Shown here in pieces: positions 11,435-55,200 of a stretch of DNA of 64,000 bases (position 1 is its first letter; every line of letters starts with the position of its first letter). The notes beneath the pieces were generated by a model. It did not search any database and was not told the origin of the DNA. It saw only the letters and a list, made by a program, of their open reading frames with translations. The stretch lies in assembly GCA_963766365.1 (NCBI GenBank), contig CAVXZK010000010.1, positions 5,783-69,782 on the forward strand, written 5' to 3'. A program made the position numbers and the translations under genes. This DNA is from an uncultured beta proteobacterium (GTDB taxonomy: Bacteria > Pseudomonadota > Gammaproteobacteria > Burkholderiales > Burkholderiaceae_F).

Positions 11435-12400
11435 ATGAACGTCCTCGTGACCGGCGCTGCGGGTTTTCTCGGACAGCGCCTGATCCGGGCGCTGCTGGAA
11501 AGGGGCGAGCTGCACGCCGGCGGGCAGGCTCGGTCGATCGCGCGCATTACGGCGCTCGACGCGGTGGCGTCGGCTGCCGATGACGCACGCGTGCGCGTCG
11601 TGCAGGGTGACCTGGCCGATCGTCAGGTGCTGGCGCGGGCCTGTGATGACGGGATCGACAGCGTCTTCCACCTCGCGGCGGTGGTGTCGGGCGCGGCCGA
11701 AGCGGATTACGAACTCGGCATGCGCGTGAACCTCGACGGCACCCGCGCGCTGCTCGATGCCTGCCGCGCACAGCAGGCTGCGCCGACCTTCGTATTCGCG
11801 AGCTCGGTCGCGGTGTTCGGCGGCGATCTGCCCGAGGTGGTGGAGGATCACACGATCCCGGCACCGCAGTCGAGCTACGGCGTGCAGAAGCTGATCGGCG
11901 AACTGCTGGTCGGCGACTGCACGCGGCGCGGCTACCTCGACGGACGCGCGGTCCGCTTGCCGACGATCGTCGTGCGGCCAGGCAAGCCCAATGCAGCGGC
12001 GTCAAGCTTCGCGAGTGGAATCGTCCGCGAACCGCTGGCGGGGGAAGAAGCACTCTGTCCGGTCGGCCCGGAAACGCGGCTGTGGGTGATGTCGCCGGCG
12101 CAGGCGGTGCGCAACCTGATCCATGCGCACGAAACGCTGTCAGCGGCATGGGGCCGGCAGCGGGCGGTCAGCCTGCCGGGCTTGACCGTGTCGGTGCGCG
12201 AGATGCTCGACGCATTGCGACAGGTCGGCGGCGAGGCGGCGGTGCGACGCGTGCGCTTCCAGCCCGATGAGCGCATCGCGAAGATCGTCTACGGCTGGCC
12301 GGCGCGCTTCGATGCAGCGCGTGCGCAGGCACTCGGGTTCACGGCAGACACCGACATCGAGTCGATCGTGCGCGTCTACGCGGAGGAACACGCGCGATGA
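11435..12400 (+). CDS. NAD-dependent epimerase/dehydratase (extended SDR; D-erythronate dehydrogenase-like)
   Basis: MNVLVTGAAGFLGQRL.. Rossmann motif and ..SSYGVQK.. catalytic YxxxK. Confidence 0.85.
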   Translation: MNVLVTGAAGFLGQRLIRALLERGELHAGGQARSIARITALDAVASAADDARVRVVQGDLADRQVLARACDDGIDSVFHLAAVVSGAAEADYELGMRVNLDGTRALLDACRAQQAAPTFVFASSVAVFGGDLPEVVEDHTIPAPQSSYGVQKLIGELLVGDCTRRGYLDGRAVRLPTIVVRPGKPNAAASSFASGIVREPLAGEEALCPVGPETRLWVMSPAQAVRNLIHAHETLSAAWGRQRAVSLPGLTVSVREMLDALRQVGGEAAVRRVRFQPDERIAKIVYGWPARFDAARAQALGFTADTDIESIVRVYAEEHAR

Positions 12401-12675
12401 CGATGAAGAAGACCGAACTCGAGAAGCGCAAGGGGCTGAAGATCGCCAACGCCCTCAGGCAGTCCGGTCAGCGGTTCGACACGTCGGCAGTGGCGGACCG
12501 GCGTGCGCAGCGCGAGCGCGACCGCGCTGCCGGGCTGGTACCGTTCGCGGTCAAACTACCGGGTGAACTGCTGCAGCAATTGCACGAACAGGCCCGGCAG
12601 ACCAACCAGCCGCTCAACGAGTTAGTGGAACGCCTGCTGCGCACCGGATTGAAGACGGAGGGAGAAGGACAATGA
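12397..12675 (+). CDS. small protein with ribbon-helix-helix-like C-terminus
   Basis: 92 aa. The basic N-terminus is followed by ..VPFAVKLPGELLQQLHEQARQTNQPLNELVERLLRTGL (strand-helix-helix pattern). ATGA overlaps at both ends couple it to the SDR gene and the FKBP gene. Confidence 0.55.
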   Translation: MTMKKTELEKRKGLKIANALRQSGQRFDTSAVADRRAQRERDRAAGLVPFAVKLPGELLQQLHEQARQTNQPLNELVERLLRTGLKTEGEGQ

Positions 12676-13038: not shown

Positions 13039-13635
13039 TCAGCCGCCAGCGCGCGCCAGCCAGCCCAGCATCAGCAGTCCCGCCGCCGCGACCCAGCTTC
13101 CGACCGCGCGTAGCGCGATGCGGCCCCACGCGGCCTGGATCGTCGTGACCTGCGCGGCCAGGATAGCGAACAGGCAGCAGGCGGCTGTGACCGCACCGGC
13201 GAGCGCAAGCGTGCCGGAACCTCCCAGCGAAGCGCCGTTCACGTAGCCGTGCAGCAGTCCGGCCATACCCGTGAACAATGCGACCGCGGCGACTTTCAGA
13301 CTTGTATTGAGCGCGACGAGAGCGCCGGCGAGGCCGAAGGTCAAAGTCGTCAACACCGGCAGTGTGAGGTTCGACGGGAAGAGCATGCCGACCGCGCCAC
13401 CGGCCAGCCATGCCAATGGCAGCGCCAGAAGCGCCCAGCGCGCGGCCTGCGTGCCGCGCTGGCCGGCGAGCAGTGCGAGCGCGACGACGACGAGCAGATC
13501 GGCCGGCGTCAGTACGACATGGGCGATCCCGTCGTAGAACGCACCGAACCCTGTCTCCACGAGGTGCGCGCGCGTCGGCGCTGCGGCCAGCGCCAGCAGT
13601 CCGATGAGGGCGCTCCGCTTCAGAACGGCCGTCAT
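13039..13635 (-). CDS. HupE/UreJ-family membrane protein (paralog 3)
   Basis: 198 aa from MTAVLKRSALIGLLALAAAPTRAHLVETGFGAFYDGIAHVVLTPADLL.., signal peptide plus about 5 TM helices. The ATG overlaps the upstream stop (ATGA at 13632-13635). Confidence 0.78.
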   Translation of the reverse strand: MTAVLKRSALIGLLALAAAPTRAHLVETGFGAFYDGIAHVVLTPADLLVVVALALLAGQRGTQAARWALLALPLAWLAGGAVGMLFPSNLTLPVLTTLTFGLAGALVALNTSLKVAAVALFTGMAGLLHGYVNGASLGGSGTLALAGAVTAACCLFAILAAQVTTIQAAWGRIALRAVGSWVAAAGLLMLGWLARAGG

Positions 13636-14231
13636 GCGATCGCCCTCCAGAGGAAGCAGAGCCCCGCCAGCGCCACACCGCCACCCGCGGCGCGCACAAC
13701 CTGTCGCCCCATTGCCCAGCGATGCGCGAAGCCGATGAGTATGCCGACCGCATGCAACAGCCCGGTGGCGACGACGAAGCCGAGACTGTAGAGCAGCGCA
13801 CTCGTGCCCTCGGGCAGTTCGCGGCCGTGCGCGTGACCGTGGAAGATCGCAAAGAAAGCGACGATGAGCGCAGCGATCCAAAGCGGCGGCCGGACTTCCG
13901 CCAGCACCATCGCGCCCAGCACCATCGCCGACAGCGCAATGCCGATCTCGACCCCGGGTAACGGAAATCCGAGCAGGCCTATCAGTCCGCCGAACGCCAT
14001 CACGAGCGGAAACGCGACAGGCAGCACCCAGATCGCCGGCGCGCCGAGTACCGCACCCCACAATCCGACCGCAACCATCGCCAGCACGTGGTCGAGTCCC
14101 GAGACCGGATGGGCGAGCCCCGCGAGGAATCCGGCCGCCCGGCCGCTTTCTTCGTGCGCGAACGCGATCGCCGGCAACAGTGCGAGGAGCGCAACGCGCA
14201 CCATCACGCAGGACGCCGACCGGCTTGTCAT
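13632..14231 (-). CDS. HupE/UreJ-family metal (Ni/Co-type) permease (paralog 2)
   Basis: 199 aa, ..AFAHEESGRAAGFLAGLAHPVSGLDHVLAMVAVGLWG.. and ..FAIFHGHAHGRE.. are HupE/UreJ signatures. ATGA overlap with the upstream gene at 14228-14231. Confidence 0.85.
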   Translation of the reverse strand: MTSRSASCVMVRVALLALLPAIAFAHEESGRAAGFLAGLAHPVSGLDHVLAMVAVGLWGAVLGAPAIWVLPVAFPLVMAFGGLIGLLGFPLPGVEIGIALSAMVLGAMVLAEVRPPLWIAALIVAFFAIFHGHAHGRELPEGTSALLYSLGFVVATGLLHAVGILIGFAHRWAMGRQVVRAAGGGVALAGLCFLWRAIA

Positions 14232-15247
14232 GCGACACCTCGCAGCAGAATCGCCACGCGCTGAATCGTCCAGAACGCCCCGAGCGTGCCCACCAGATAA
14301 CCCGGCAGCCGCTTGACGATTCGCGGCCAGTGAATCTCCAGTAGCCGGAATGCGCGTTCGAGCAGCAGGATCAACAGGACGAACGCGAGCTGACCGATCT
14401 CGACGCCGACGTTGAAGAGCAGCAGCGCCAGCGGAATCTCGCCCTTGGGCAGGCCGAGCTGCGCCAGTCCGCTCGCGAAGCCAAACCCGTGCAGCAGTCC
14501 GAACGCGAACGCGACGACCCACGGGTGGCGGATCGTGAAGCTCGTCTGTCCGCGCCAGCGCCGCACGATCTCCGGTCCGAGGAACAGGATCGACAACGCG
14601 ATCACGGCGTTCAGCGGCGCCGCTGGCACCTGTGCGATGCCGAACGTGGCGACCGCCAGCGTGATGCTGTGCGCAATCGTGAACGCGGTGACGGTCTTCA
14701 CCAGCATCCAGCGGTCGCGCACGATCAGCAGCAGCCCGAGCACGAACAGCAGGTGGTCGACGCCGAGCAGGATGTGCTCGATGCCGAGATAGAGATACGC
14801 GCCGACGCCGCGCCGCGTGTCGCCCGCCGCACGCAGCGTGACCGACGGCTGTATCGGCTTCAGCACGTGCGTCTCGACGCTCTCGTCGGCATGCTGCACG
14901 CGGACCAGCACGTCGGTGACGAACGCCTCGAGCCCCTCGATCGCGATCGCCTGCCCGGCGAGGCCGGACCTGCACTCGAGTCGCGCCGTGAACACCCAGG
15001 CGGTGCCGGCGCGGCTGCTGCGCGCCTCCCCGATCTGGCGGCAGGTCTCCGGGAACACCGGCGCTATCGGCATGCGCGTATCCGAGCCGCCGAGCGAAGG
15101 CAGCTTCCACAGCACGTCGTAGCGGCCGGGCGCCGTCTCCTTCAGTTCGAGGAAGCCGGGCTGAAGCTCATGTGCAGCGACAGGCGCGAAGAGAAGTGGC
15201 GCGATCGCCGCCAGCAATGCAAGCAGCCCGCGCAGCGCGCGCGTCAT
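14228..15247 (-). CDS. HupE/UreJ_2-like membrane protein with ~170-aa N-terminal periplasmic domain (paralog 1)
   Basis: Start at MTRALRGLLALLAAIAPLLFAPVAAHELQPGF.. (signal peptide). The C-terminal half has ..GIEHILLGVDHLLFVLGLLL.. and ..FGLLHGFGFA... ATGA overlap with the PPIase gene at 15244-15247. Confidence 0.75.
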   Translation of the reverse strand: MTRALRGLLALLAAIAPLLFAPVAAHELQPGFLELKETAPGRYDVLWKLPSLGGSDTRMPIAPVFPETCRQIGEARSSRAGTAWVFTARLECRSGLAGQAIAIEGLEAFVTDVLVRVQHADESVETHVLKPIQPSVTLRAAGDTRRGVGAYLYLGIEHILLGVDHLLFVLGLLLIVRDRWMLVKTVTAFTIAHSITLAVATFGIAQVPAAPLNAVIALSILFLGPEIVRRWRGQTSFTIRHPWVVAFAFGLLHGFGFASGLAQLGLPKGEIPLALLLFNVGVEIGQLAFVLLILLLERAFRLLEIHWPRIVKRLPGYLVGTLGAFWTIQRVAILLRGVA

Positions 15248-16101
15248 GGCTTGCCGGCCTCCGGCATCTGCACCTTGATCGCGTACTTCGCGCGCAGCTT
15301 GTCGTAGAACGCCTTCGCAAGCGCCTGCCGTCGGGCGTTCGCCCATTCGCGCTCGACCAGCGGGCGGACGTCATCGAGCGCGGACGTGCCGCCCGGCTGA
15401 AGCGCTTCCAGGCGTACGACGTGCACGCCGTATCCGGACGGAATCGGACCCACCCACTGGCCGACCGGCTGCTTGACGAGCGCCTCGGCAAACGCGCTGC
15501 CGAACAGGCGCGCGACCTCCGCCTGCGGCATGTTCTCGTAGCGCGCCTCAAGCAACAGAAGTCGGTCGCCCGACTTCGCAGGATCGACACTTGTGCCCGC
15601 CCGGCTCAACGAATCGAGCAGGCGCCTTGCATCCGCGTCGATAGTCGACGTGCGCTTGCGCGGGTCGAGGTACACCTGGACAAAGGTCACACGCGGTTCG
15701 CTGCGAAAGGCTTCGGCGTTGGCCTTCAGGTAGGCGTTCAGTTCCTCATCGGTCGGCTTCGCGAGAGCCGCCGCCTCTTCCGAGACGAACTCCATTTTCT
15801 GCTGAAGGCGTCGACGGATGATCGAGTCGTCACGGTCGAGTCCGAGCGCGAGTGCCTCGCGGTAGAACACTTCCTCGCGCACGTGTGACTCCACCAGTCC
15901 GTCGAGTTCCTCGCGCGTCGGCGGTCGCTGCCAGGTGCGGCGAAAGTTCTGCGCGAGGTTGCTGACGCGCGCCTCGCTGACGACGATTTCGGTGCTGGCC
16001 GTATTGGCGCTAGTTGGACGCAGCCAGGCATCGAGCGCGAAGAACGCCGCGCCGAGCAGCAGGAACTGGACGAGGGGCTCGCGCGCGAGCGACTTCAGCA
16101 T
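15244..16101 (-). CDS. membrane-anchored PpiC/parvulin-type peptidyl-prolyl isomerase
   Basis: 285 aa with N-terminal anchor ..REPLVQFLLLGAAFFALDAWL.. and a SurA/PpiD-like architecture. Confidence 0.75.
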   Translation of the reverse strand: MLKSLAREPLVQFLLLGAAFFALDAWLRPTSANTASTEIVVSEARVSNLAQNFRRTWQRPPTREELDGLVESHVREEVFYREALALGLDRDDSIIRRRLQQKMEFVSEEAAALAKPTDEELNAYLKANAEAFRSEPRVTFVQVYLDPRKRTSTIDADARRLLDSLSRAGTSVDPAKSGDRLLLLEARYENMPQAEVARLFGSAFAEALVKQPVGQWVGPIPSGYGVHVVRLEALQPGGTSALDDVRPLVEREWANARRQALAKAFYDKLRAKYAIKVQMPEAGKP

Positions 16102-16137
16102 CGTGCCGCGTTTTCTGCCGGGATCGAGGGCGGCGCG

Positions 16138-16737
16138 TCAGCCGCGCGCGCGGTCGTTCAGCCAGCCGCGCGCCGTGGCGACGTCGGGCGCCGGCCCGTA
16201 CAGCCGAATGACACCGAGGGACAGGGCTTCGTCGAAGGTCAGGCTGCCGGCAGCAATCGCCTCGACGACGGCGATGTCGGTGACCACGACCACGTCGCCC
16301 CGCTCAGGGCCCTCGACGTGCAGGAGGGACTTGACCGCGCCTCGTTCCGCTTCAATCCGGTTCCACATGACCGGGCCGAGTAACACCACGGCGAGGCTCG
16401 GCCGGGTTGTCGTCGTGCCGGGTTCCGCCAGCCGCGCCACAAACTGGCGCAACAATGTGTTCGCCCGGATCCCCCGCATCGCTGCGCGTGCCTCCGGCGT
16501 GAGGTCGTCGCGCTGCGCAAGCGGATCGCGCGGTAGTTTCCCGGCAAGCTGCGCTTGCCAGATGGCCGTGCCCACGTGAAGCGACTCTGGGTACGCCAGG
16601 TTCAGGACCCCGCGGCGCATCGTGATAGACGACGGATCCTCGAGGCCGCACGCGGTGGCCGCTGCGGCGACGGCGAGGAGCGCGCCGCCGATCGCGATCG
16701 ACAGCAGGCCAGCGACACGACGGCGTGCGGGGTTCAT
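16138..16737 (-). CDS. possible lipoprotein, function unknown
   Basis: Start at MNPARRRVAGLLSIAIGGALLAVAAAATACGLED.. (signal peptide with Cys). ATGA overlap with the DUF3604-A stop at 16734-16737. Confidence 0.6.
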   Translation of the reverse strand: MNPARRRVAGLLSIAIGGALLAVAAAATACGLEDPSSITMRRGVLNLAYPESLHVGTAIWQAQLAGKLPRDPLAQRDDLTPEARAAMRGIRANTLLRQFVARLAEPGTTTTRPSLAVVLLGPVMWNRIEAERGAVKSLLHVEGPERGDVVVVTDIAVVEAIAAGSLTFDEALSLGVIRLYGPAPDVATARGWLNDRARG

Positions 16738-18680
16738 GACGGCGAATACCAGATCGGCGCCGTGTACGCGCGCTCCTGCAGGGTCATCGTCACGCCGGCC
16801 GGAGCCTTGATACCGAAGCGCTTGACGTCGTATGCCGTCCACCGCGGCGTCGGGATCTCGAGCACGCGGGCGTAATAGAACGCACGATCGCCCGGCTTGA
16901 AGTCCGGGTCGCGCCACACGGTGATCAACTCGGGCGCGCCGACCGAGTTGGTCCACGTCGCATTGGCCACGTCGACGCTGCTGCCCACCGACGGTACCTT
17001 GCTGTCCTTGCCGGGCTTGCGGTCGCCGCTCCACACCACGTCGTAGACGCGTTCCTGCAACTCACCCTTGGCATCCATCCAGCCCTTGACGATCTGAATC
17101 CGATCGAGATTGGCGCCGATCGGGTCCTTCAACGCGGCAACGAGGAAGGTCGGCGCCTTGCCGGCGGGTGCTTTGGCAAGATCACCTCCCATCGGTACTC
17201 CCTTGGCGTAGCCGACCGCGGCGGGCAACCGGTTCTGCGCGTCCTGCGCCGCGAAGTCCCAGCCGCCGAAGAAGCGCACCGCCATACGCGTGCCCGTGGT
17301 GGCATACGTCTCGCGGCGCTTCATCGCGTCGAAGATCGCTTCGCGGCTGTTGTCGGTCGCCCATACCGCAGCGAACCCAGAGGCACCGACTTCCCAGTCC
17401 ATGATGCGAACGCCGGACTTTGCGTTGTTGAAGAAAGTCGCACTGATCCGCTCGGGGCTCGGCTCCTGCGGCACCGTCTTGCCGAAGAAGTTGTCTTCCT
17501 CCATCGCGGCGAGGCCGGTGTGCGAATCGCTGCTGCCGATCATGCCGAACTTGAAGGGGTTGACTCCCAGTTTCGCGTCCAGCTTGAGGCCATTCTTCAG
17601 TGCCGAGCGGGCGTACTCGAACTCGAGCATATCCTTCGTCTTGGCCACGGTTCCATCGAGATTGCCCTTGTCCCAGAGCTCGAAGTTCGCGAACTCGTCG
17701 TTCAACGACAGGAACGGATGCGCCTCCCCGGTGCCCTTGGTCTGCGTGACTTCATAAAGCGGTTCCCAGCGTGCGCGCGTCGCGGCGTACTCGCGATCGA
17801 TCGGCTTGCCGAACGCCTCGACGACCGGGAACATCCGCCCGTTGCTCAGGTTGCCGTTGTGTGCGATCGCGAGCACTTCGGTGCCCGTCTTCTCCTGCGT
17901 CGCCGCCATCCACTTCCACAGGTCGACCGGGTTGTCGCTGCCGAGCGGCTTCAGCGTCGTGTACGGCTCGACCAGCGAGGCCTGCGCGCCGTTGCCGCGA
18001 AAGATCACGTTGCGGTGCAGGTTGTTGCCGCCGGTATTGGACGTCCACTCGAAGCCGATGAACGCGGTGAACCGCCCGGGGTCGTTGTAGTCCTCGGCCG
18101 CCTTGATCGTCTGCTGCCACGCGCCGCGGTAAGCGGTGGTGCCGGGCAGCGGGAATCCCTCGGGCATCTGGCCCTTGCCAAAGCTGACGATGATGTCGAT
18201 CGCCGCCGCAGCGCCTTGCCCGCCGCGGATCTGGTCGTACCACTTGCGGCCCTGCGGCGTCGCGAGCAGTGCCGGGTCCCCGCCCATCAGCAATGGGAAG
18301 AAGCCCATGCCATCCGAGTGATCCGCGACCACCAGCCAGTCGAGCGGGCGCGACAACTGGACCCGCTGCCCGGTCGACGAGGTCACTTCCTCGCCGCGTG
18401 CGAAGCGGTAGGCGTCACTCGGGGACAGGCGGGCGCCGAACGCGCCCGCATCCATCGAGAATCCGGTGTGCAAGTGCGTGTCGCCGAACAGCGGTCGCGT
18501 CGGGAACTTGCGGCCCGCGTAGGGCGAGTAAAGCGGCTTGGCAGGATGAACCTTGTCGAGCGTCGCCTTGTCGGCGGTCCCGGAGATGCCGACGTTGCCC
18601 TGTTGCGCCAGTGCAGCCCAGAAAACTCCGCCGCCGACCGCGAAGGCAATGGCTGCCCTAATCAACCTCTTCGCACTCAT
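16734..18680 (-). CDS. secreted DUF3604-family protein (paralog A), PHP-like metal-dependent hydrolase fold
   Basis: 648 aa with a signal peptide. Motifs: FGDTHLHTGFSMDA, VADHSDGM, FEWTS, AIAHNGNLSNG, GSSDSHTG, C-terminal ..ERAYTAPIWYSP. Confidence 0.85.
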   Translation of the reverse strand: MSAKRLIRAAIAFAVGGGVFWAALAQQGNVGISGTADKATLDKVHPAKPLYSPYAGRKFPTRPLFGDTHLHTGFSMDAGAFGARLSPSDAYRFARGEEVTSSTGQRVQLSRPLDWLVVADHSDGMGFFPLLMGGDPALLATPQGRKWYDQIRGGQGAAAAIDIIVSFGKGQMPEGFPLPGTTAYRGAWQQTIKAAEDYNDPGRFTAFIGFEWTSNTGGNNLHRNVIFRGNGAQASLVEPYTTLKPLGSDNPVDLWKWMAATQEKTGTEVLAIAHNGNLSNGRMFPVVEAFGKPIDREYAATRARWEPLYEVTQTKGTGEAHPFLSLNDEFANFELWDKGNLDGTVAKTKDMLEFEYARSALKNGLKLDAKLGVNPFKFGMIGSSDSHTGLAAMEEDNFFGKTVPQEPSPERISATFFNNAKSGVRIMDWEVGASGFAAVWATDNSREAIFDAMKRRETYATTGTRMAVRFFGGWDFAAQDAQNRLPAAVGYAKGVPMGGDLAKAPAGKAPTFLVAALKDPIGANLDRIQIVKGWMDAKGELQERVYDVVWSGDRKPGKDSKVPSVGSSVDVANATWTNSVGAPELITVWRDPDFKPGDRAFYYARVLEIPTPRWTAYDVKRFGIKAPAGVTMTLQERAYTAPIWYSPS

Positions 18681-18747
18681 TCAAGCCTCCCGGCACGACC
18701 GCGCTAAATCGGGTCGTCAGTGTAGCCGGCGGTTACGGAGTGTCGCT

Positions 18748-20802
18748 CTACGAGCGCGGCGAGTACCAGATCGCCGACGTCCACGCGCGCTCCTGGTGCT
18801 TCATCGGAACGTCCTTGGACATCTTCACGCCGAAGCGCACCTGGTCGTAGGCGGTCCAGCGCGGCGTCGGAATCTCGACGACGCGTGCGTAGTAGTACGC
18901 GCGCTGCGAGGCCTTGAAGTCCGGGTCCTTCCACACGGCGCCGAGTTCGGACGCGCCGATCGTGTTGGTCCACGTGGCCCGCTCAACATCAACCGTATCG
19001 CCCACCGGCGGGACCTTGCCGTTCTTGCCGGGCTTGCGGTTGCCCGACCATGCGACGTCGTAGATCTTCTCGTAAGTCTTGCCCGCGGAATCGACCCAGC
19101 CCTTGACGATCTGGATGCGATCGAGGTTTCCGCCGACCGGGTCCTTGAGCGCCGCGACGAGGAACGTCGGCGTCTTGCCGGCCGGCGCAGCGTTGAGTTC
19201 TCCACCCATCGGCACACCCTTCGTGTAGCCCGCCTCGGCGAGATAGCGCGAACGCGCGTCGTCGGCGTTGAAGTCCCAGCCGCCAAACAGACGCACCGTC
19301 ATGCGCGTGCCAGACGTGGCGTACACCTCCTTGCGCTTCATCGCGTCCCACAGCGCTTCGCGCGTGTTCTCTGTCGCCCACACCGCGGCATAGCCTGCGG
19401 CGGTGTACTGCCAGTTGTAACGCGTCTTGCCGAGGCCCTTCTTGGACTCGTGTTCCCAACGCGTCGGGCTCGGCTCCTGATCGATGTGCTTGCCGTAGAA
19501 GTTGTCTTCCTCGATCGAGGTCAGCGAGTTGTGCACGTCGGTGCCGCCGATGATGCCGAACTTGAACGGGTTCACGCCCAGCTTCTTCTCGTGCATCAGT
19601 CCCTGCGCCAAACCGGGACGCAGGTAGTTGGTCGGCATCATCTCGCGCGACAGCGGCTGGCCTTCGAGCGTCAGGTTGCCGTACTCCCAGCCGGCGATGC
19701 CGAAGTTGGCGAACTCGTCGTTGGGCGACAGCAGCGGGTGAGTCTCGCTCGCACCCTTGGTCTGCATCATCTCCTGCAACACGTCGAAGCGCGCGCGCCG
19801 CTCGGCGTAATCCTTCGTCAGCGGCTTGCCGGCGAAGTCGACCGACTCGAACATGCGCCCGTTGGACAGGTTGGCGTTGTGCGCGATCGCGAGTAGCCTG
19901 CCGCCGGTCTTCTTTTCGTAAGTGTCCATCCACGCCCAGAGCTTTTCGGGGTCCTCGCTTTGCCAGGACGAGAACGGCAGGATCTGGTCGGACTTGTCCT
20001 TGCCGTCGCGGAACATGATGTTGCGATGCAGATTGTTGCCACCCGGGACCGAGGTCCACTCGTAACCGATCATCGCGGTGAAGCGGCCCGGTTCGTTGAA
20101 CTTGTCGGCGGTGGCGGTGTACTGCTGCCAGACCGACTTCATAATTGGGCCGACGACCTTCGGGTCCTTGATCGGCGGCGGCAGCGTGTTGTTCGCCTGC
20201 GCCGATATCAGTTCCCGCATCGTCGTGGCCGCTTCCTGCCCACCTGCCTTCATCGCCTTGCCCCAGCGCTCGAGCGTGGGGTCCGACGCGAACGCGGGGT
20301 TGCCCTCGTAGACCTGCAGCATCACGCCAAGGCCCTCGGCGTGATCGGTGACCACGAGGAAGTCGAGCGGGCGCGACAGCTTGGCAGGTACGCCGGTGGA
20401 CGAGATCACCTCCTCGCCGCGCGCGAACCGGTAGGCCTGCTCCGGGGTTAACCGGGCGCCCGCCATGAACGCGTCGCCGGAGTTGGCGGTGTGGTTGTGC
20501 GTGTCGCCGAAGTACACCCGCGTCGGGTACTTGCGGCCGGCGTAGGGCGAGTATTTCTTCTTGACCTCCATCTGCGCCGGGGTCTCGGGCTTGCGGGCGT
20601 GGTCCTCGCCGTCGTAGTGGTCAACCGCGGCCTTGACCACGACGTCGTCATTGGCGCCCACGCCCGGCGGGCTCTGGGCTGGCGCACGACTTGTCATTAC
20701 CAATGCCGCCACCATGACTGCGCTTGCCGACACGGCAAACACTGCGTATCGACTCCCTTTGGGTGCCATCGCCCTTCTCCCCTCGACGTTCAGGTCGTGC
20801 AA
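18748..20802 (-). CDS. secreted DUF3604-family protein (paralog B)
   Basis: 684 aa (start may be the Met at 20769). Motifs: FGDTHNHTANS, VTDHAEGL, YEWTS, AIAHNANLSNG, GGTDVHNS, ..ERAWTSAIWYSP. Confidence 0.85.
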   Translation of the reverse strand: MHDLNVEGRRAMAPKGSRYAVFAVSASAVMVAALVMTSRAPAQSPPGVGANDDVVVKAAVDHYDGEDHARKPETPAQMEVKKKYSPYAGRKYPTRVYFGDTHNHTANSGDAFMAGARLTPEQAYRFARGEEVISSTGVPAKLSRPLDFLVVTDHAEGLGVMLQVYEGNPAFASDPTLERWGKAMKAGGQEAATTMRELISAQANNTLPPPIKDPKVVGPIMKSVWQQYTATADKFNEPGRFTAMIGYEWTSVPGGNNLHRNIMFRDGKDKSDQILPFSSWQSEDPEKLWAWMDTYEKKTGGRLLAIAHNANLSNGRMFESVDFAGKPLTKDYAERRARFDVLQEMMQTKGASETHPLLSPNDEFANFGIAGWEYGNLTLEGQPLSREMMPTNYLRPGLAQGLMHEKKLGVNPFKFGIIGGTDVHNSLTSIEEDNFYGKHIDQEPSPTRWEHESKKGLGKTRYNWQYTAAGYAAVWATENTREALWDAMKRKEVYATSGTRMTVRLFGGWDFNADDARSRYLAEAGYTKGVPMGGELNAAPAGKTPTFLVAALKDPVGGNLDRIQIVKGWVDSAGKTYEKIYDVAWSGNRKPGKNGKVPPVGDTVDVERATWTNTIGASELGAVWKDPDFKASQRAYYYARVVEIPTPRWTAYDQVRFGVKMSKDVPMKHQERAWTSAIWYSPRS

Positions 20803-20811
20803 TCTTCGGAT

Positions 20812-21801
20812 TCAGAACTTGTAGACGGCCTTCAGCCAGATGTAGTCGCCGTCGAGGCGGTTCTTCGTGTCCATCTCGAACAGCCACTTGAACTCCACTA
20901 CGAACGACTCGGTCTTGCTCAACGGCTGGATGTAGCCGATCACGGGACCGAGCCCCGCGGTGCGCCCCTTGAAGCAGCCAAGCACCGCGCCCGAGCCGCT
21001 GTCGCAGCTCACCTGCTGGAAATAGAACCCTTCGGCACCGAGTGTCATAAGCCCCGTGCCCAACGGCAGGATCTGCTCGATCGCCCCGTCGAAATGCAGA
21101 ACACTGCCGCTCTTGTAGTCGGTGTCGGGATTCTCGGTGTTGATCGCGTAGCCGGTGTTCAGCAGCGCGTTGAAGCCGCTCTTCGTGTTGCTGTAGGTCA
21201 CGCCGAACACCGGATCGAACGTCCAGTAGTTCAGGCCCGGATTGCCGAGCCGGCCCTCCTGATAGCTGCCGGTCGGCGCGTAGATCGGCAGCACGAAGTT
21301 GTATTGCCAGTGGCTATCGGGTTCCTTCCACGCCAGCATGGTCGGAATGAACGTCAGGTCGCCGAAGCCCGAAACGCTGCTGTCGACCCGTCTCGTCACT
21401 CCGCTGCGCGACTGCACGCTGGCCGAGACGTCCAGAAAGGAGTACGGCAATGCGGCGACCATCGAATAGGTCGCGCCGAAAACCTTCCCCTCAAACGCAT
21501 AGATGCCCGCCAGAACGAAGGTGTTTGCCGTGGCCTCCAGGTTGCTGGCCAGCCCTGCCGCGGTCGGGATCTCTTTCGTCGCGCTGCCGCTGTAGTTGAG
21601 GTACATCGGCTTGATGATCATGCCCGGTGCGGTCGGCGCGTTGTCGATGAGCGTGGACATCGAGCCAGGGATCACGTGGGTCGTTCCGCCTTCGCCGGCC
21701 GTGGCCGTCTGCGAAAGCGCGAGGGTGAGCGACACCATCGCACCCGCCGCCGTGCGACGCCAGAGCTGCGTCGATCGAATCCTTTTGGACGACCTTCTCA
21801 T
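20812..21801 (-). CDS. outer-membrane beta-barrel channel (MetA-pathway/'transporter' family-like)
   Basis: Start at MRRSSKRIRSTQLWRRTAAGAMVSLTLALSQTATA (signal peptide). Has an alternating beta-strand pattern and a C-terminal ..YIWLKAVYKF aromatic terminus typical of OMPs. Confidence 0.72.
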   Translation of the reverse strand: MRRSSKRIRSTQLWRRTAAGAMVSLTLALSQTATAGEGGTTHVIPGSMSTLIDNAPTAPGMIIKPMYLNYSGSATKEIPTAAGLASNLEATANTFVLAGIYAFEGKVFGATYSMVAALPYSFLDVSASVQSRSGVTRRVDSSVSGFGDLTFIPTMLAWKEPDSHWQYNFVLPIYAPTGSYQEGRLGNPGLNYWTFDPVFGVTYSNTKSGFNALLNTGYAINTENPDTDYKSGSVLHFDGAIEQILPLGTGLMTLGAEGFYFQQVSCDSGSGAVLGCFKGRTAGLGPVIGYIQPLSKTESFVVEFKWLFEMDTKNRLDGDYIWLKAVYKF

Positions 21802-21865
21802 TCTGCGACTCCTTTTTTTGCTTTCCTGGATGAACGTCCCGCATGGGTCATGCGCGCTCTGCAGC

Positions 21866-23768
21866 TCAGGGCGTGTACCAGATCGGCGAAGTCCACGCGC
21901 GCTCCTGAATCGTTGCCGGCACGTCCTTGAGAAGCGGCAGGTTGTTGCGTACGGCGTCATACGTCGTCCAGCGAGGGGTTGGAATTTCCAGCACGCGGAC
22001 GTAGTAGAGCGCCGGTCGCTTCGGATCGAACGCCGGATCGGTCCAGCGGCCCATCAGTTCGGGGGCACCGATGCTGTTCGTGTACGCGGCCGTCTTCGTA
22101 TCGACGGTGTTGCCGACCGGCGGCAGCTTGCCGTCCTTGCCCGCTTTGCGTTCGCCGCTCCAGGCGACGTTGAATACCTTGTCTTGCGGCTCGCCTTTCG
22201 CGTCGACCCAGCCCTTGACGATCTGGATGCGGTCGAGGTTCGCGCCGTTCGGGTCCTTCGCCGCCCAGACCGTGAACGCCGGCGCCTTCGACAGTGACTT
22301 GAGGGTTCCGCCCATCGGCACGCCGGACTTGTAGCCCTGCTCGACCAGTGCCTTGCCGTCGGCCGGTGCAGCCAGATCGGCACCTCCGAAGAGCCGCGCC
22401 TTGATGCGCGTGCCCGAGGTCACGAACGACTCGCGCGCCGCCATCGCGTCCCAGATTGCAGCGCGCGTATTTCTCGTCGCCCACACGGCCGCGAGCGTCC
22501 CGGGACTCGACTCCTTCGCCTTGATCCAGCCATCGATCTCGCCCTCGCGCCGGACCTGCACCGTGTCGTCGGCGGGGCCGTGACTGCCGATGTAGTCGTT
22601 CTCGGCGACGTCCGAAGGCAGGCCGTTATGGTTGTCTGTGCCGCCCGTGAAACCGAGCTGGTACGGATTGGCGCCGAGCTTCGCCTGATAGTCGAGTCCC
22701 TTGATGACCGCCCAGCGTACGAAGTTCTGCTTCTGGAAAGTGCGGCCGCTGAAAGTCGCCACGCTGTCCGCGTTCTCGAAGTTCGCGAACTCGTCGGCTG
22801 GCCAGAACTTGCGGTGCACCTCCGAGTTGCCCTTGATCTGCATCATCTCGATCAGGCGCTCGAAGTGACTTCTGCAGCCGCGCGTAATCGGCGGTCAGCG
22901 GCTTGCCGGCACGGTCGGCCGCGTTGAACATGTAGCCCTTGCTGCCGTTCGAGTTGTGCGGGATCGCGAGCAGCCTGCGGCCCTGCTTCTCCTGCTCCGC
23001 CATCCACGACCAGAGCTTCTCCTCATCGTCGGTGTCGAGGGCCGAGAGCGGCACTTCGGGTACGTTGAGGTCGCGGAAGAGGACGTTGCGGTGCATGTTC
23101 CCGGCGTCACGCGAGGCGGTCCATTCGAAGCCTGCCAGCGTCGTGAATCGGCCGGGCTGGTAGTGGTCGCGGGCCGCCTTGATGATCACGTCGTTCCAGG
23201 CCGACTTCGTCGTCTCCGGCCCCGCGTAGAACGGCGGATGGCCCGGGTTGTCGCCGCGCATGTTGCTGATGACGTACTTCACGAACCACGCGCGCTGCTC
23301 TTCGACGTCCTTCAGGCCGCGCAGTTCAGCCAGCATCGGGTTGTCGTAGCCCTTCGCGCCCCTGACCTGCGCGGAATACATCTCGCCGATGAACTCGGCG
23401 TGATCCGAGACCGCAACGAAGTCGAGCGGTCGGCCGATGTTGTGCTTGATCCCGTGGACCGTGACTTCCTGCCCCTTGGCGAAGCGGTAGGCCTCGTCCG
23501 GCGTGATGCGCGCGCCGCCGATGAAGGCGTCCATCGAGAACGAGGTGTGCACGTGTGTCTCGCCGAAGAACGCCTCCTTGAGCGGACTCTGCGGCACGGC
23601 GGCCTCAAGCGCCTCGACGGTCGGGGGTTTCGGGGCCGCCGTCGCGGCCGCTTCGGCCTTGGCGGCGGGCGCTTGCGGCGTCTCGGCCTGTTGACCACAG
23701 CCGCTCAATATGAGCAGCGCGCAGGCGATCACACCGGTTGCACTCAACTTGGCACTCATCGTCTTCAT
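21866..23768 (-). pseudogene. DUF3604-family lipoprotein (paralog C) split by one +1 frameshift near 22872-22877
   Basis: Track ORFs 22626-23768 and 21866-22846 are the N- and C-halves of one DUF3604 protein. The lipobox is ..ILSGCGQQ. Motifs: FGETHVHTSFS, VSDHAEFI, FEWTA, AIPHNSNGSKG, GGTDNHNG, ..ERAWTSPIWYTP. Homology switches frame between ..PLTADYARL and SHFERLIEMMQIKG. Confidence 0.78.
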
Positions 23769-23942
23769 CTCCCCTTGTCCTTGCGGCTACTTCGGCAGTG
23801 GCAGAGTTGCACCGGACCAACTCCGAGCACTCTTGCCTTTCTGCTCGTCGTAATTTTGGACGACTCCCTCTTTCACGGATTGGATTTCCGGAAACTTCCG
23901 GGTTTCGTTCGGCGCAACGCGTGCGGTCGATGCCTCGCGCCG

Positions 23943-24032
23943 TTACGCCTCATTCTTGGCGGGACGAGGCTGAATCAGTGCGATCAGGCACAGGGCGCCC
24001 GCCGCCACGGCGATCTGCACGAACAGTTTCAT
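23943..24032 (-). CDS. possible 29-aa hydrophobic micropeptide
   Basis: AAGGAG 7 nt upstream of the ATG. Translation is MKLFVQIAVAAGALCLIALIQPRPAKNEA (one TM helix). Below the ORF-track size cut-off. Confidence 0.3.
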   Translation of the reverse strand: MKLFVQIAVAAGALCLIALIQPRPAKNEA

Positions 24033-24158
24033 CGACGGTCTCCTTGGCCCGGTGCCAGGTCGAATGGGTTCCGGGACAAGAATTTGACTGAATCGAGAGC
24101 CGTCCTTCATGCCGCTCCATGTTGCGGCACCAGCAGCCGCACCGCGATCAGACCTGGA

Positions 24159-24395
24159 TCAGTTCCACTTTTCTTCCCGGCATTCGCTGCGCCGCTTGTC
24201 GTTGTCCAGCTTGCTGCAGCCGACTTTCTTGCCGTCATTGTTTCCGTACTTACGTTGACGGCATTCATTGCGCGCCTTGTCATTGTCGAGCTTGCCGCAG
24301 TTCACACCCTCGTACTTGTTCTTGTCGTCGTTCGCCACGGCCATCGAGCTGGCCAGACACAGAAGCACAATCGGCAGCAATTTCATCAAACGCAT
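24159..24395 (-). CDS. small secreted Cys-containing protein with tandem internal repeat
   Basis: Start at MRLMKLLPIVLLCLASSMAVA (signal peptide). The mature part has two copies of C-x-KLDNDK-x-R-x-EC-R-x-x-K. It lies in a locally lower-GC patch. Confidence 0.55.
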   Translation of the reverse strand: MRLMKLLPIVLLCLASSMAVANDDKNKYEGVNCGKLDNDKARNECRQRKYGNNDGKKVGCSKLDNDKRRSECREEKWN

Positions 24396-24689: not shown

Positions 24690-24919
24690 TCATTGCCGGA
24701 CTGGTGCCGGCAGCATGCGCCTCCGAGTCCTTCGGTTTCCATCTGTTGGTCGGGCGCGCGTCCGCCGCCCTGGGACCGCTGGCGTTTGGCGCGGTAAGTC
24801 TGTTGACCGGAAGTCAACGTGCGGCAATGGCGTCGCTCGCCAACTTCTTCATCGGTTGCGGAGTCGCGCTGGCAGTCGTGCGGCTGCACGGCAATCGGTC
24901 TGACAAACCGGCCACGTGA
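24690..24919 (+). pseudogene. C-terminal remnant of an MFS transporter
   Basis: Only the last ~75 codons look MFS-like (..FGFHLLVGRASAALGPLAFGAVSLLTGSQRAAMASLANFFIGCGVALAVVRL..). No matching upstream TM region or start exists. Confidence 0.35.
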
Positions 24920-26887: not shown

Positions 26888-27559
26888 TTACTTCGGAAAA
26901 AGCAGCGTCACCACGAGGCGGAATCCCCAGCCATGCGGACCACCCTCCGGGCCGTCGGCCCAGTAACGCACCCCGCCACCCACGCTCACCAGCTGGTCGC
27001 CGACCTTGGGCACCTTGGACACGATCGCGTTGATCGGCACGGCCCACTGTTCGCGCTCCCAGTCGTAGGTGCTTTCCGTGTTGAGCGTGAACGACCACGC
27101 GGTCGGCGTCGTGTAGCTGACGAAAGGCTGCACGAAGGTCGCGCTCACGTCCTGCCTGCCGCTCCCGGCGGACGACTAGATGTGGTTCGCGAGCAGCCCA
27201 TAGGTCCACGGACCATCCTGCTTGAGCGCCACCCCGGCCGGCCCCGCGCCCCACTTCTTGACCGACAGAAGACCGTCCGACCTGTTCGGCAGCAGGAACA
27301 CCGGCCCCGCAGCCCAGATCCACCCGCCGGCCGTCGGCGCCTTCGGCGAGAAGAAAACGCTCTGCACGATGTCGCCGATGCACGACTGGCTGCCCGCGCC
27401 CGGATAGATCTCGTCCTGCCAGCCAAGAGCCAGAATCGTGCGCGAAATCAGGCTCCACTCTGGGCTGAGATCGACCGGCAGCACCGGCTGGATGTTGAGC
27501 TGCCGGCCGCGTACGCTGACGCGGGCGACACCCGGGTCGCGAGTTCGGCCTGACGTCAA
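26888..27559 (-). pseudogene. outer-membrane protein remnant: 5'-truncated, with an in-frame TAG
   Basis: Track ORFs 27176-27559 and 26888-27148 are one frame joined by ..GLLANHI-TAG-SSAGSGRQDVSATFVQPF... Related OMPs have Trp (TGG) at this position. There is no signal peptide and no room for one before the TPP-enzyme gene. The C-terminus ..VVTLLFPK is OMP-like. Confidence 0.6.
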
Positions 27560-29349: not shown

Positions 29350-30033
29350 TCAGTTCAGCGGACGGCGTGGCGGCAGGTAGATGTCCTGCCGGTAGGTCAG
29401 CACCGCGTGCGGGGTGAACACCACGAGTGCAGAGAACAACATTCCCGACAGCAGCGCCTCGCCCCAGGCCAGCAGCAGCGAGTAGGCAAGATGATCGCCG
29501 AAGAGCCGCGTCGCACCGGCCGATTCGACGGCTGACAGCGCCAGCACGAGCGCGCTGGCGCAGACCGTGGCCGCAAGCGTGACGAACAGTCCGTTGCCGA
29601 TGATGAAAACGAAGAGATTCCTGGGCAGGCGCCGTTCGATCTGCTGTTGCAGGGCGGTCGCCAGCCATGCCGGGATGACGGCCAGCACCGCGCCATTGAT
29701 GCCGACGTTGAACCACGTCCCGCGGTCGAGTGCCGTGTACAGCACCAGTGCGGCCATCAGCCCGAGGACCGCACGGGCGCGGCCGAAGACGAGCGCAAAG
29801 AGCGCGCTCCCGAGGAGCCCGAAATCCATGCCCACCGGCGAACGCACATGCAGGGCCCAGAGGAGCGCGGCAATGACAATTGCGGCGAACCACGCATGCT
29901 GTGCTGTGCTGGTCGGCAGAAAGTCGTGCCGGACGGACGCGATGGCATGCGCGACGGCCGGGATGACGATCAGCCAGCCCAGTATCGCGAGTGCGAAGGG
30001 AGCGTCGGCGTGCAGCAGGTTCATGGCGGACAC
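29350..30033 (-). CDS. integral membrane protein (about 6 TM; possibly CbiM/ECF-S-like)
   Basis: 227-aa hydrophobic ORF. The family assignment is only a recollection of similar annotations. Confidence 0.65.
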   Translation of the reverse strand: MSAMNLLHADAPFALAILGWLIVIPAVAHAIASVRHDFLPTSTAQHAWFAAIVIAALLWALHVRSPVGMDFGLLGSALFALVFGRARAVLGLMAALVLYTALDRGTWFNVGINGAVLAVIPAWLATALQQQIERRLPRNLFVFIIGNGLFVTLAATVCASALVLALSAVESAGATRLFGDHLAYSLLLAWGEALLSGMLFSALVVFTPHAVLTYRQDIYLPPRRPLN

Positions 30034-54890: not shown

Positions 54891-55200
54891 GCAAAGTCCG
54901 CCGGGCGATCGCGGTGGCCTAACGGTCATCGAGGAAAGTCCGGACTCCGTAGAGCAACGTAGCAGGTAACGCCTGCCCACCGCGAGGTGAGGATCAGAGC
55001 AACAGAGACGAGCCGATTCAGTTCGGGTGAAACGGGCAATCTCTACGCGGAGCAACACCAAATAGGCGGCCGATGATCCTGCTCGGGGAGGTCGCGGGTA
55101 GGTGGCTAGAGCCGGCGGGTGATCGCCGGCCCAGAGGAATGATCGCTGCGGCGCCTGCAAGGGCATCGAACAGAATCCGGCTTACAGGCGGACTTTGCCT
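54891..55200 (+). ncRNA. rnpB: RNase P RNA (bacterial type A)
   Basis: Has the universal GAGGAAAGTCCGG (54931-54943) and the 3' ACAGAATCCGGCTTAC box. P1 pairs caaagtccgcc (54892-) with ggcggactttg (55187-55197). Confidence 0.85.

Follow-up and report, generated by a model that had tools for sequence, protein, structure and literature searches.

Both Sb-PDE and No-PDE belong to the phosphodiesterases of the PHP family and have a trinuclear zinc site with full occupancy, the ligands in No-PDE being H61, H63, D68, H93, E135, H142, H203, D260 and H262, and their sole solved homologue is BVU_3505 of Bacteroides vulgatus (PDB 3E38), a metal-dependent two-domain PHP-like phosphoesterase (PMC11656708). 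Sb-PDE is secreted by the Sec route and held about two zinc equivalents when it was purified from its native host (PMC5460133). Here we describe a gene cluster which may encode distant structural relatives of these enzymes together with helper proteins of their own. It lies on the minus strand (13039-23768) of a stretch of 64,000 nucleotides from an uncultured beta proteobacterium, referred to below as the window, and consists of nine genes in the same direction, three of which encode proteins of the Pfam family DUF3604. The picture that we favour, with a probability of about 0.5, is that of a Sec-exported PHP-type esterase accompanied by dedicated periplasmic folding and metal-supply factors.

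The acquisition of metals by Sec-exported enzymes is a long-standing question, and copper and zinc out-compete other ions in the periplasm. To our knowledge few dedicated periplasmic metal-supply systems are known. An architecture termed 'anglerase', in which a periplasmic Ang-1 domain precedes a HupE/UreJ-2 permease, was described in 2025; His1, the first residue of mature Ang-1, has binding affinities of 74 nM for Cu(II) and 220 nM for Ni(II), and the domain was proposed to 'fish' metal and to feed the permease (PMC12537917). DUF3604 itself was found in one paper, in the annotation of a Chlamydia gene, and the accessions PF12228 and IPR022028 in none. A combination of DUF3604 with Rotamase_2 and HupE_UreJ_2, the triad to which we draw attention here, is not described in the searchable literature either, in agreement with the statement in the original prediction for this DNA that no characterised member of the gene set was known. 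Each component belongs to a known superfamily; it is the combination that is undescribed, and it is not a categorically new system.

Fold and candidate metal site of the DUF3604 proteins

The three DUF3604 paralogues, DUF3604-1 (21866-23768), DUF3604-2 (18748-20769; 673 amino acids (aa) from the ATG at 20769) and DUF3604-3 (16734-18680; 648 aa), are encoded on the minus strand and share 43-55% identity, with 55% between the last two. Two of them match Pfam DUF3604 (PF12228) over its full length with 811-813 bits against a cut-off of 20.4, the E values being 1.6e-244 for DUF3604-2 and 6.1e-244 for DUF3604-3, both predicted to be Sec-exported. Five His/Asp motifs and export signals are present in all three paralogues and one of them, DUF3604-1, carries a lipobox (LSGC). 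The original prediction, made from the letters of the DNA, had listed the five motifs, the export signals and a single lipoprotein, and in these points it proved to be right. It had also given all three paralogues a length of 640-690 aa, which does not apply to DUF3604-1; that gene is interrupted by an insertion of one nucleotide and would encode about 634 aa if repaired.

The AlphaFold2 model of DUF3604-3, based on 120 sequences, has a mean predicted local distance difference test score (pLDDT) of 84 and a predicted template modelling score (pTM) of 0.87, and it comprises a PHP-like barrel and a C-terminal beta-sandwich. When the model was submitted to Foldseek the top PDB match was 3E38 (E=2.8e-6, probability 1.0), with a modest TM-score (template modelling score) of 0.28 normalised to the query and 0.47 normalised to the target, and all the other matches were beta-sandwiches aligning to the C-terminal domain. 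Nine residues, namely H69, H71, D77, H121, E211, H222, H274, D385 and H387, are invariant in 120/120 sequences of an alignment that spans two orthogroups, and their counterparts are found in all three paralogues of the window. In the model these putative ligands are placed at or just past predicted strands, and their location at strand ends together with the fold match suggests that they may cluster in space.

The ligand series HxH, D, H, E, H, H, DxH occurs in DUF3604-3 in the same order as in Sb-PDE, No-PDE and 3E38, and the two-domain plan of a PHP barrel followed by a C-terminal beta domain is common to them. Sec-type export is also a property of Sb-PDE and No-PDE. Nevertheless the DUF3604 proteins are 200-250 aa longer with large insertions, have no detectable sequence similarity to these enzymes and form a Pfam family of their own; moreover they are encoded beside a chaperone and permeases, and such neighbours are unreported for Sb-PDE. 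The PHP-like character of DUF3604, which had been suspected from the motifs, is supported both by 3E38 as top match of the model and by the nine invariant positions. It is thus very probable that DUF3604 proteins belong to the PHP fold class, to which this degree of confidence applies, and they would be Sec-exported metallo-esterases.

Sec-type signal peptides were found in 104/120 and 111/120 homologues of two DUF3604 sets. As the signals are overwhelmingly of this type, both the folding and the acquisition of metal must occur in the periplasm.

A triad conserved across phyla

In a scan with one genome per species at least 571 DUF3604 loci were confirmed. The best 80 of these, 60-80% identical to DUF3604-3, and two loci fetched earlier were searched with the proteins of the window, and of these 82 loci (designated by L numbers) 67 were judgeable and 15 were not. 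The genes encoding Rotamase_2 and HupE_UreJ_2 adjoin DUF3604 and are co-directional with it in 51 of the 67 judgeable loci; in L002 and L064 the helper pair is on the opposite strand from the queried DUF3604 copy. DUF3604, Rotamase_2 and HupE_UreJ_2 form the universal core, which occurs in at least nine phyla in the order Rotamase_2-HupE_UreJ_2-DUF3604 or DUF3604-Rotamase_2-HupE_UreJ_2. Its carriers belong to the Pseudomonadota (Alpha-, Beta- and Gammaproteobacteria), Nitrospirota (Nitrospira), Acidobacteriota, Verrucomicrobiota, Planctomycetota, Gemmatimonadota, Desulfobacterota, Eisenbacteria and UBA10199. The linkage is also present in annotated megaplasmids of cultured rhizobia, and tractable rhizobia with the module include Sinorhizobium fredii NGR234, Rhizobium leguminosarum WSM1689, R. 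etli and Mesorhizobium.

Since the linkage recurs in dozens of unrelated genomes, the nine-gene arrangement is far beyond chance. The association of DUF3604 with a HupE-type permease and a putative peptidyl-prolyl isomerase (PPIase), first noticed in the window, is evidently not specific to one genome. Across phyla DUF3604 retains 60-80% identity against 30-55% for the helper proteins.

In S. fredii NGR234 the orthologous genes are found on pNGR234b (L092, 503309-512851) as a minus-strand run composed of b05020, b05010 (rotamase), b05000 (HupE/UreJ), b04990, b04980 and b04970. NGR_b04990 is a homologue of the lipoprotein of the window cluster (35% identity, E=1e-18), NGR_b04980 is a DUF3604 protein 70.7% identical to DUF3604-3 and NGR_b04970 combines DUF1254 and DUF1214. 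According to published RNA-seq data 0.5 mM CaCl2 induced these six genes about 3-fold, from b05020 to b04970 by 2.71, 3.13, 3.06, 2.98, 3.56 and 3.23-fold, and in two other contrasts they changed by 1.8-2.8-fold, with the divergent flank genes b05030 and b04960 remaining at 0.75-0.99 (PMC10970691). The orthologous module is therefore co-expressed in NGR234, in line with the expectation that the genes of the cluster are transcribed together; the statement concerns NGR234 and not the organism of the window. Phosphate starvation was considered as a cause of the calcium induction and was set aside as speculation, pstS and phoB not appearing in the main text of the same paper.

Other neighbours of DUF3604 are more variable. 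The HupE pair and the lipoprotein described below are each present in fewer than 10 of the loci examined. In the fetched flanks the recurrent neighbours are sulfatases (14/82 loci), formylglycine-generating enzyme (5) and multihaem/tetratricopeptide repeat (TPR) proteins (5). Outer-membrane barrels also recur from module to module and are non-orthologous, belonging to Phenol_MetA_deg, Toluene_X, DUF481 and two unnamed families. In Mesorhizobium sangaii (L054, 3502-11914) the triad is part of a longer same-strand run with genes for an arylsulfatase and a formylglycine-generating enzyme, and in R. leguminosarum WSM1689 (L090, 133-10771) it is accompanied by an arylsulfatase, a HAD hydrolase, a multihaem cytochrome and a DUF481 barrel. 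These rhizobial neighbourhoods hint at a shared role in the scavenging of organic esters.

Helper proteins, proposed mechanism and alternatives

The Rotamase_2 protein (15244-16101, minus strand, 285 aa), a member of the core, has an N-terminal hydrophobic anchor in the inner membrane and matches PF13145 (E=1.7e-13) over residues 116-247. In most of 53 aligned homologues the first parvulin histidine position is occupied by Gln (F.QV.L) and the motif SGYG.HLV is kept; we take the catalytic positions to be placed as in parvulins generally. Since the canonical pair of histidines is incomplete, the protein appears more likely to be a chaperone than an active isomerase. Of the membrane-anchored parvulin PPIase that had been proposed, the anchor and the parvulin domain were found and the complete histidine pair was not. 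The protein can be likened to PpiD/PrsA/SurA and to the lipase-specific foldase, being membrane-anchored with a periplasmic parvulin-like domain and encoded beside an exported client, although PpiD is much longer.

The long HupE_UreJ_2 permease (14228-15247, minus strand, 339 aa), also a core component, consists of a signal peptide, a periplasmic all-beta domain (about 125 aa) and a transmembrane domain, with PF13795 (E=1.1e-46) covering residues 151-299. The mature protein starts with HELQPGF after ...PVAA, a cleavage site that was read by eye, and it does not have the additional domain of about 170 aa that had been attributed to it, the domain of the mature protein measuring about 125 aa. 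The first mature residue of its homologues is His1 in 41/50 and Asp1 in 9/50. With the anglerase RbAng-1a (PDB 9GCE) it has in common the signal peptide, the mature His, the periplasmic beta domain and the PF13795 transmembrane domain, and for both a part in the capture of transition metals is proposed; in contrast the Ang-1 domain has about 175 aa, and Asp1 replaces the His in the 9/50 homologues. Foldseek returned generic Ig-like matches alone (E~0.02) for the N-terminal domain, for which phmmer and profile searches gave no match to any PDB chain. Homology of this domain to 9GCE was looked for by phmmer, profile and Foldseek and was not found. The long permease shares the architecture of anglerases and can be regarded as a candidate homologue.

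The two remaining permeases complete the three of HupE/UreJ type that had been recognised in the cluster, Pfam assigning HupE_UreJ_2 once and HupE_UreJ twice. The canonical HupE (13632-14231, minus strand, 199 aa, PF04955 E=2.6e-57) contains HPVSGLDH and FHGHAHG and carries a His directly after the signal peptide, its mature N-terminus being HEESG. In the divergent paralogue (13039-13635, minus strand, 198 aa, PF04955 E=1e-10, mature N-terminus HLVETG) the motifs HPxxGxDH and FHGxxHG, which we take to be the HupE/UreJ signatures, are both degenerate. The pair was found in L003, L004, L005, L014, L019 and L083-L086, and the divergent copy is always paired. PF04955, both motifs and the post-signal His are common to the canonical HupE and the nickel permeases HupE (Rhizobium leguminosarum)/UreJ. 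Unlike the HupE/UreJ genes of hydrogenase and urease clusters, however, that of the window has no such genes nearby; its partners are a degenerate paralogue and the long HupE_UreJ_2 permease, and its apparent client is periplasmic and not cytoplasmic.

From these components we infer an enzymatic activity, a metal, a direction of metal flow and the chaperone and metal-supply roles of the helpers as follows. DUF3604 would be exported unfolded via Sec, or as a lipoprotein, and would adopt a PHP-type barrel, which holds a three-metal centre, and a C-terminal beta-sandwich. It would most likely hydrolyse a phospho-ester, either a di- or a mono-ester, and less likely a sulfo-ester or a related ester. 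The inner-membrane-anchored Rotamase_2 protein would act as its dedicated folding chaperone, and the HupE/UreJ-2 permease's periplasmic domain, with a metal-binding His1, may capture or deliver the divalent metal of the enzyme or remove competing metals. The canonical and degenerate HupE may extend the permease set in the lineage of the window, and the lipoprotein, the outer-membrane channel and the two further DUF3604 paralogues can be seen as add-ons, the channel probably admitting the substrate.

A stronger version, in which DUF3604 is a new class of periplasmic PHP-fold ester hydrolase (e.g. a phosphodiesterase or sulfo-esterase acting on environmental esters) and its metal centre is loaded by the His1 permease and the parvulin chaperone, is put forward tentatively and is rather doubtful. 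Such a loading machine, if it exists, would give a PHP enzyme a dedicated metal-insertion system for the first time, and its HupE-type permease would be the first with a client in the periplasm rather than in the cytoplasm. In soil and sediment bacteria of many phyla the module brings together a metal permease, a chaperone and an enzyme that is conserved to an unusual degree, and its occurrence in tractable rhizobia makes the hypothesis directly testable. Should DUF3604 be a phosphodiesterase or sulfo-esterase, it would be a widespread addition to environmental phosphorus or sulfur cycling, and it might be capable of degrading organophosphate pollutants in the manner of its distant structural relatives Sb-PDE and No-PDE.

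Several observations weigh against this reading of the cluster. No match of DUF3604 to PF02811 (PHP) was obtained at E<=10, nor any PDB match by phmmer or profile, and in hhalign against YcdX of E. coli motif I (DxHxHT) alone aligns (E=0.076); as sequence methods give no link to PHP, the assignment depends on the fold of the model and on the series of ligands. The whole AlphaFold2 model of the long permease is of low confidence (pLDDT 66.6), its beta-rich N-terminal domain reaching about 85, and the anglerase structure 9GCE was not among the top 50 Foldseek matches of that domain. The helper pair is absent from 16 of the 67 judgeable loci despite a flank of at least 2.5 kb on each side (2.5-10 kb), and in L088 DUF3604-1, the channel and DUF3604-2 have orthologues (78%, 66% and 78% identical) in this same order, the channel between the two, without helpers. 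Between DUF3604 and its helpers the correlation of pairwise identities is weak (rho 0.16 for Rotamase_2 and 0.09 for HupE_UreJ_2), and co-phylogeny of enzyme and helpers was dropped as support for this reason. The searchable literature holds no activity, metal content or phenotype for any DUF3604 protein. HupE/UreJ proteins are known for import into the cytoplasm (PMC12537917) and are not known as donors to periplasmic enzymes. Furthermore the closest characterised enzymes, Sb-PDE and No-PDE, acquire their zinc without a known helper (PMC11656708, PMC5460133).

Three other explanations can be considered, each of which fits the conservation pattern less well than an exported esterase with dedicated helpers. 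The one that survives best is a co-regulated island for nutrient scavenging, for instance under phosphorus, sulfur or trace-metal limitation, in which DUF3604, sulfatases, channels and permeases would be expressed together for one stress response and would not depend on each other physically, the chaperone and the permeases not being specific to DUF3604. The sulfatases and formylglycine-generating enzymes already counted in the flanks (14/82 and 5/82) are consistent with it, as are the varying composition of the clusters and the response of nearby DUF2092 (LolA-like) and glp genes of NGR234 to the same treatment, DUF2092 being induced about 3-fold (PMC10970691). Yet the triad remains tightly adjacent, on the same strand and with stop/start overlaps, in at least nine phyla while its surroundings vary, and chaperones of general use in the periplasm, like metal importers, normally have their genes at other sites. 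For these reasons we regard the island as unlikely.

The second explanation is that of a system primarily for metal uptake, in which the HupE-type permeases import Ni, Co or Cu into the cytoplasm and DUF3604 has an accessory part in the periplasm, either releasing the metal from an organic complex (a phospho-ester, for example) or buffering it ahead of uptake. Proteins of the HupE/UreJ type are established or proposed Ni/Co importers, and 'fishing' of metal was proposed for Ang-1 (PMC12537917). Three permease genes lie in a single cluster, and Rotamase_2 and HupE_UreJ_2, whose pairwise identities have a correlation of 0.43, track each other closer than either tracks DUF3604. On the other hand DUF3604 is the most conserved component of the module and has several paralogues, a behaviour more suited to an enzyme than to an accessory, and genes for cytoplasmic Ni/Co enzymes (urease, hydrogenase) are absent from the flanks of the window. 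Moreover the neighbourhood tables published for Ang-1 contain DUF3604 in zero occurrences and Rotamase_2 with a count of 3 (PMC12537917), so that such permeases work without DUF3604. Metal uptake with DUF3604 in a subordinate part seems to us a little less plausible still than the scavenging island.

Composite structure and surroundings of the cluster

The nine genes are separated by 64, 42, 67, -4, 36, -4, -4 and -4 nucleotides, so the largest gap of 67 nucleotides agrees with the nine co-directional genes with gaps of 70 nucleotides or less that the original prediction had reported. The four ATGA stop/start overlaps (13632-5, 14228-31, 15244-7 and 16734-7) were confirmed at the coordinates claimed. 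They do not chain the five distal genes, as had been thought, and instead join six genes in two runs, DUF3604-3/lipoprotein and Rotamase_2/HupE_UreJ_2/HupE/HupE, the gap of 36 nucleotides between the lipoprotein and Rotamase_2 genes breaking the chain. In the Pfam scan DUF3604 was found three times, Phenol_MetA_deg, Rotamase_2 and HupE_UreJ_2 once each and HupE_UreJ twice; the lipoprotein was unmatched, and NCBIfam had no name for any of the nine proteins.

The designation of the cluster as a nine-gene operon holds in that nine genes of the same strand adjoin one another. It does not hold as a description of one unit, because the cluster is a composite of two recurring sub-modules, DUF3604-1/channel/DUF3604-2 and DUF3604-3/lipoprotein/Rotamase_2/HupE_UreJ_2/HupE/HupE, and three genes only belong to the core. 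Shorter and longer versions exist in other genomes. In two other Burkholderiales (L084 and L085) there is a version of five genes with DUF3604, Rotamase_2, HupE_UreJ_2, HupE and HupE, and L086 has the channel and both paralogues followed by Rotamase_2, HupE_UreJ_2, HupE and HupE. The close relative L083, 82-93% identical to the window in nucleotides over collinear blocks, retains DUF3604-3, the lipoprotein, Rotamase_2, HupE_UreJ_2, HupE and HupE; DUF3604-1, the channel and two thirds of DUF3604-2 are gone, a DUF3604-2 remnant of 252 aa is left and a MarR gene is found there instead. Absent or truncated in L083, and with one of them frameshifted in the window, the upstream three genes are dispensable.

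The gene encoding DUF3604-1 has 1903 nucleotides, which is not a multiple of 3, and is read as two open reading frames. It is split by a single extra base in ctgcAgaagtcac, near 22869-22873 (22865-22877 stretch, minus strand), where the orthologues that were inspected encode ...YA(K/R)LRSHFERL... The two halves score 242 and 425 bits to Pfam DUF3604, at model positions 3-249 and 257-591. All the DUF3604-1 orthologues listed (120/120) are full-length (587-649 aa) with 74-91% identity, and 104/120 carry the lipobox. The other 17 genes of the window that were compared with L083 are without frameshift. The insertion may have created a pseudogene, perhaps recently, or it may be an error of sequencing or assembly.

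A relic of 70 aa (24695-24904, plus strand) resembles, with 44% identity, the C-terminal end of an MFS transporter whose gene is complete in L083. This relic and the MarR gene found in L083 at the place of the upstream genes mark the intergenic zone as a hot spot of rearrangement. The third of the other explanations, decay and loss of function of the cluster in the genome of the window, if only of the upstream part, is improbable. In its favour are the frameshift in DUF3604-1, the 5'-truncated channel-like gene at 26891-27541, the MFS relic and the losses in L083. Against it stand the six downstream genes, all of them intact with 58-95% identity to their counterparts in L083, the absence of frameshifts in the 17 other genes, so that an error of sequencing would explain the one insertion just as well, and the occurrence of split DUF3604 genes in many related long-read assemblies.

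The truncated gene (26891-27541, minus strand) encodes a member of an unnamed family of outer-membrane barrels with the C-terminal motif NPVAxLISVP...F, and the first 101 codons of the L083 version are missing. This family adjoins DUF3604 in L019, L069 and L072 and is at most a few kb away from it in L015, L050 and L055.

The outer-membrane channel of the cluster (20812-21801, minus strand, 329 aa) has a signal peptide, matches Phenol_MetA_deg (PF13557, E=8.5e-49) and ends with ...AVYKF. The ribosome-binding site AAGGAG precedes its ATG at 21801, and GGGGAGAAGG is found in the equivalent place ahead of the ATG of DUF3604-2.

The accessory lipoprotein (16138-16737, minus strand, 199 aa) belongs to an unnamed family in which the lipobox Cys30 is invariant and which comprises 405 representative clusters (50% identity) at E<=1e-3. 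No match was obtained in Pfam, NCBIfam or the PDB, the Pfam searches being made with the window protein at E<=10 and with 55 members at E<=0.01. It was guessed from the C-terminus that this protein could be an SCP2-like lipid binder, a proposal that was rejected as no Pfam or PDB profile matched. Homologues are present in L003, L004, L005, L007, L054, L057, L079 and L083 as well as in NGR234 (b04990). The identity to the L083 lipoprotein (11944-12540) is 58%, far below the 90-95% of the DUF3604-3, Rotamase_2 and HupE neighbours, which suggests fast evolution or an exchange by recombination.

Upstream of the cluster there is a leader and probable promoter region (23769-24158, minus strand). It holds the perfect inverted repeat CCGGAAGTTTCCGG at 23887-23902, about 120 nucleotides upstream of the first gene and terminator-like on the plus strand, which could be an operator site. 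No sigma-70 consensus was found in the leader and cluster, where intrinsic terminators were below the shuffled expectation (both uninformative results), and neither the cluster nor its upstream region showed a riboswitch or other Rfam element. A small open reading frame a short way upstream (24159-24395, minus strand) encodes a secreted protein of 78 aa with two copies of the Cys-containing repeat C(G/S)KLDNDK(A/R)R(N/S)EC(R).

The nearest named relatives of the window are metagenome bins of Burkholderiales and Betaproteobacteria. The flanks contain ordinary metabolic genes, encoding pyruvate dehydrogenase E1, a pyridoxal phosphate enzyme, amidohydrolases, an epimerase, a convergent FKBP, a thiamine pyrophosphate enzyme and CbiM. 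The solitary CbiM-like gene (29353-30024, minus strand), a Co/Ni component of energy-coupling factor transporters, lies 5.6 kb upstream and has 95.5% identity to its L083 counterpart; the window as a whole yielded no cobalamin riboswitch. An RNase P RNA of bacterial class A (54893-55200, plus strand, 228 bits) indicates that the window is chromosomal.

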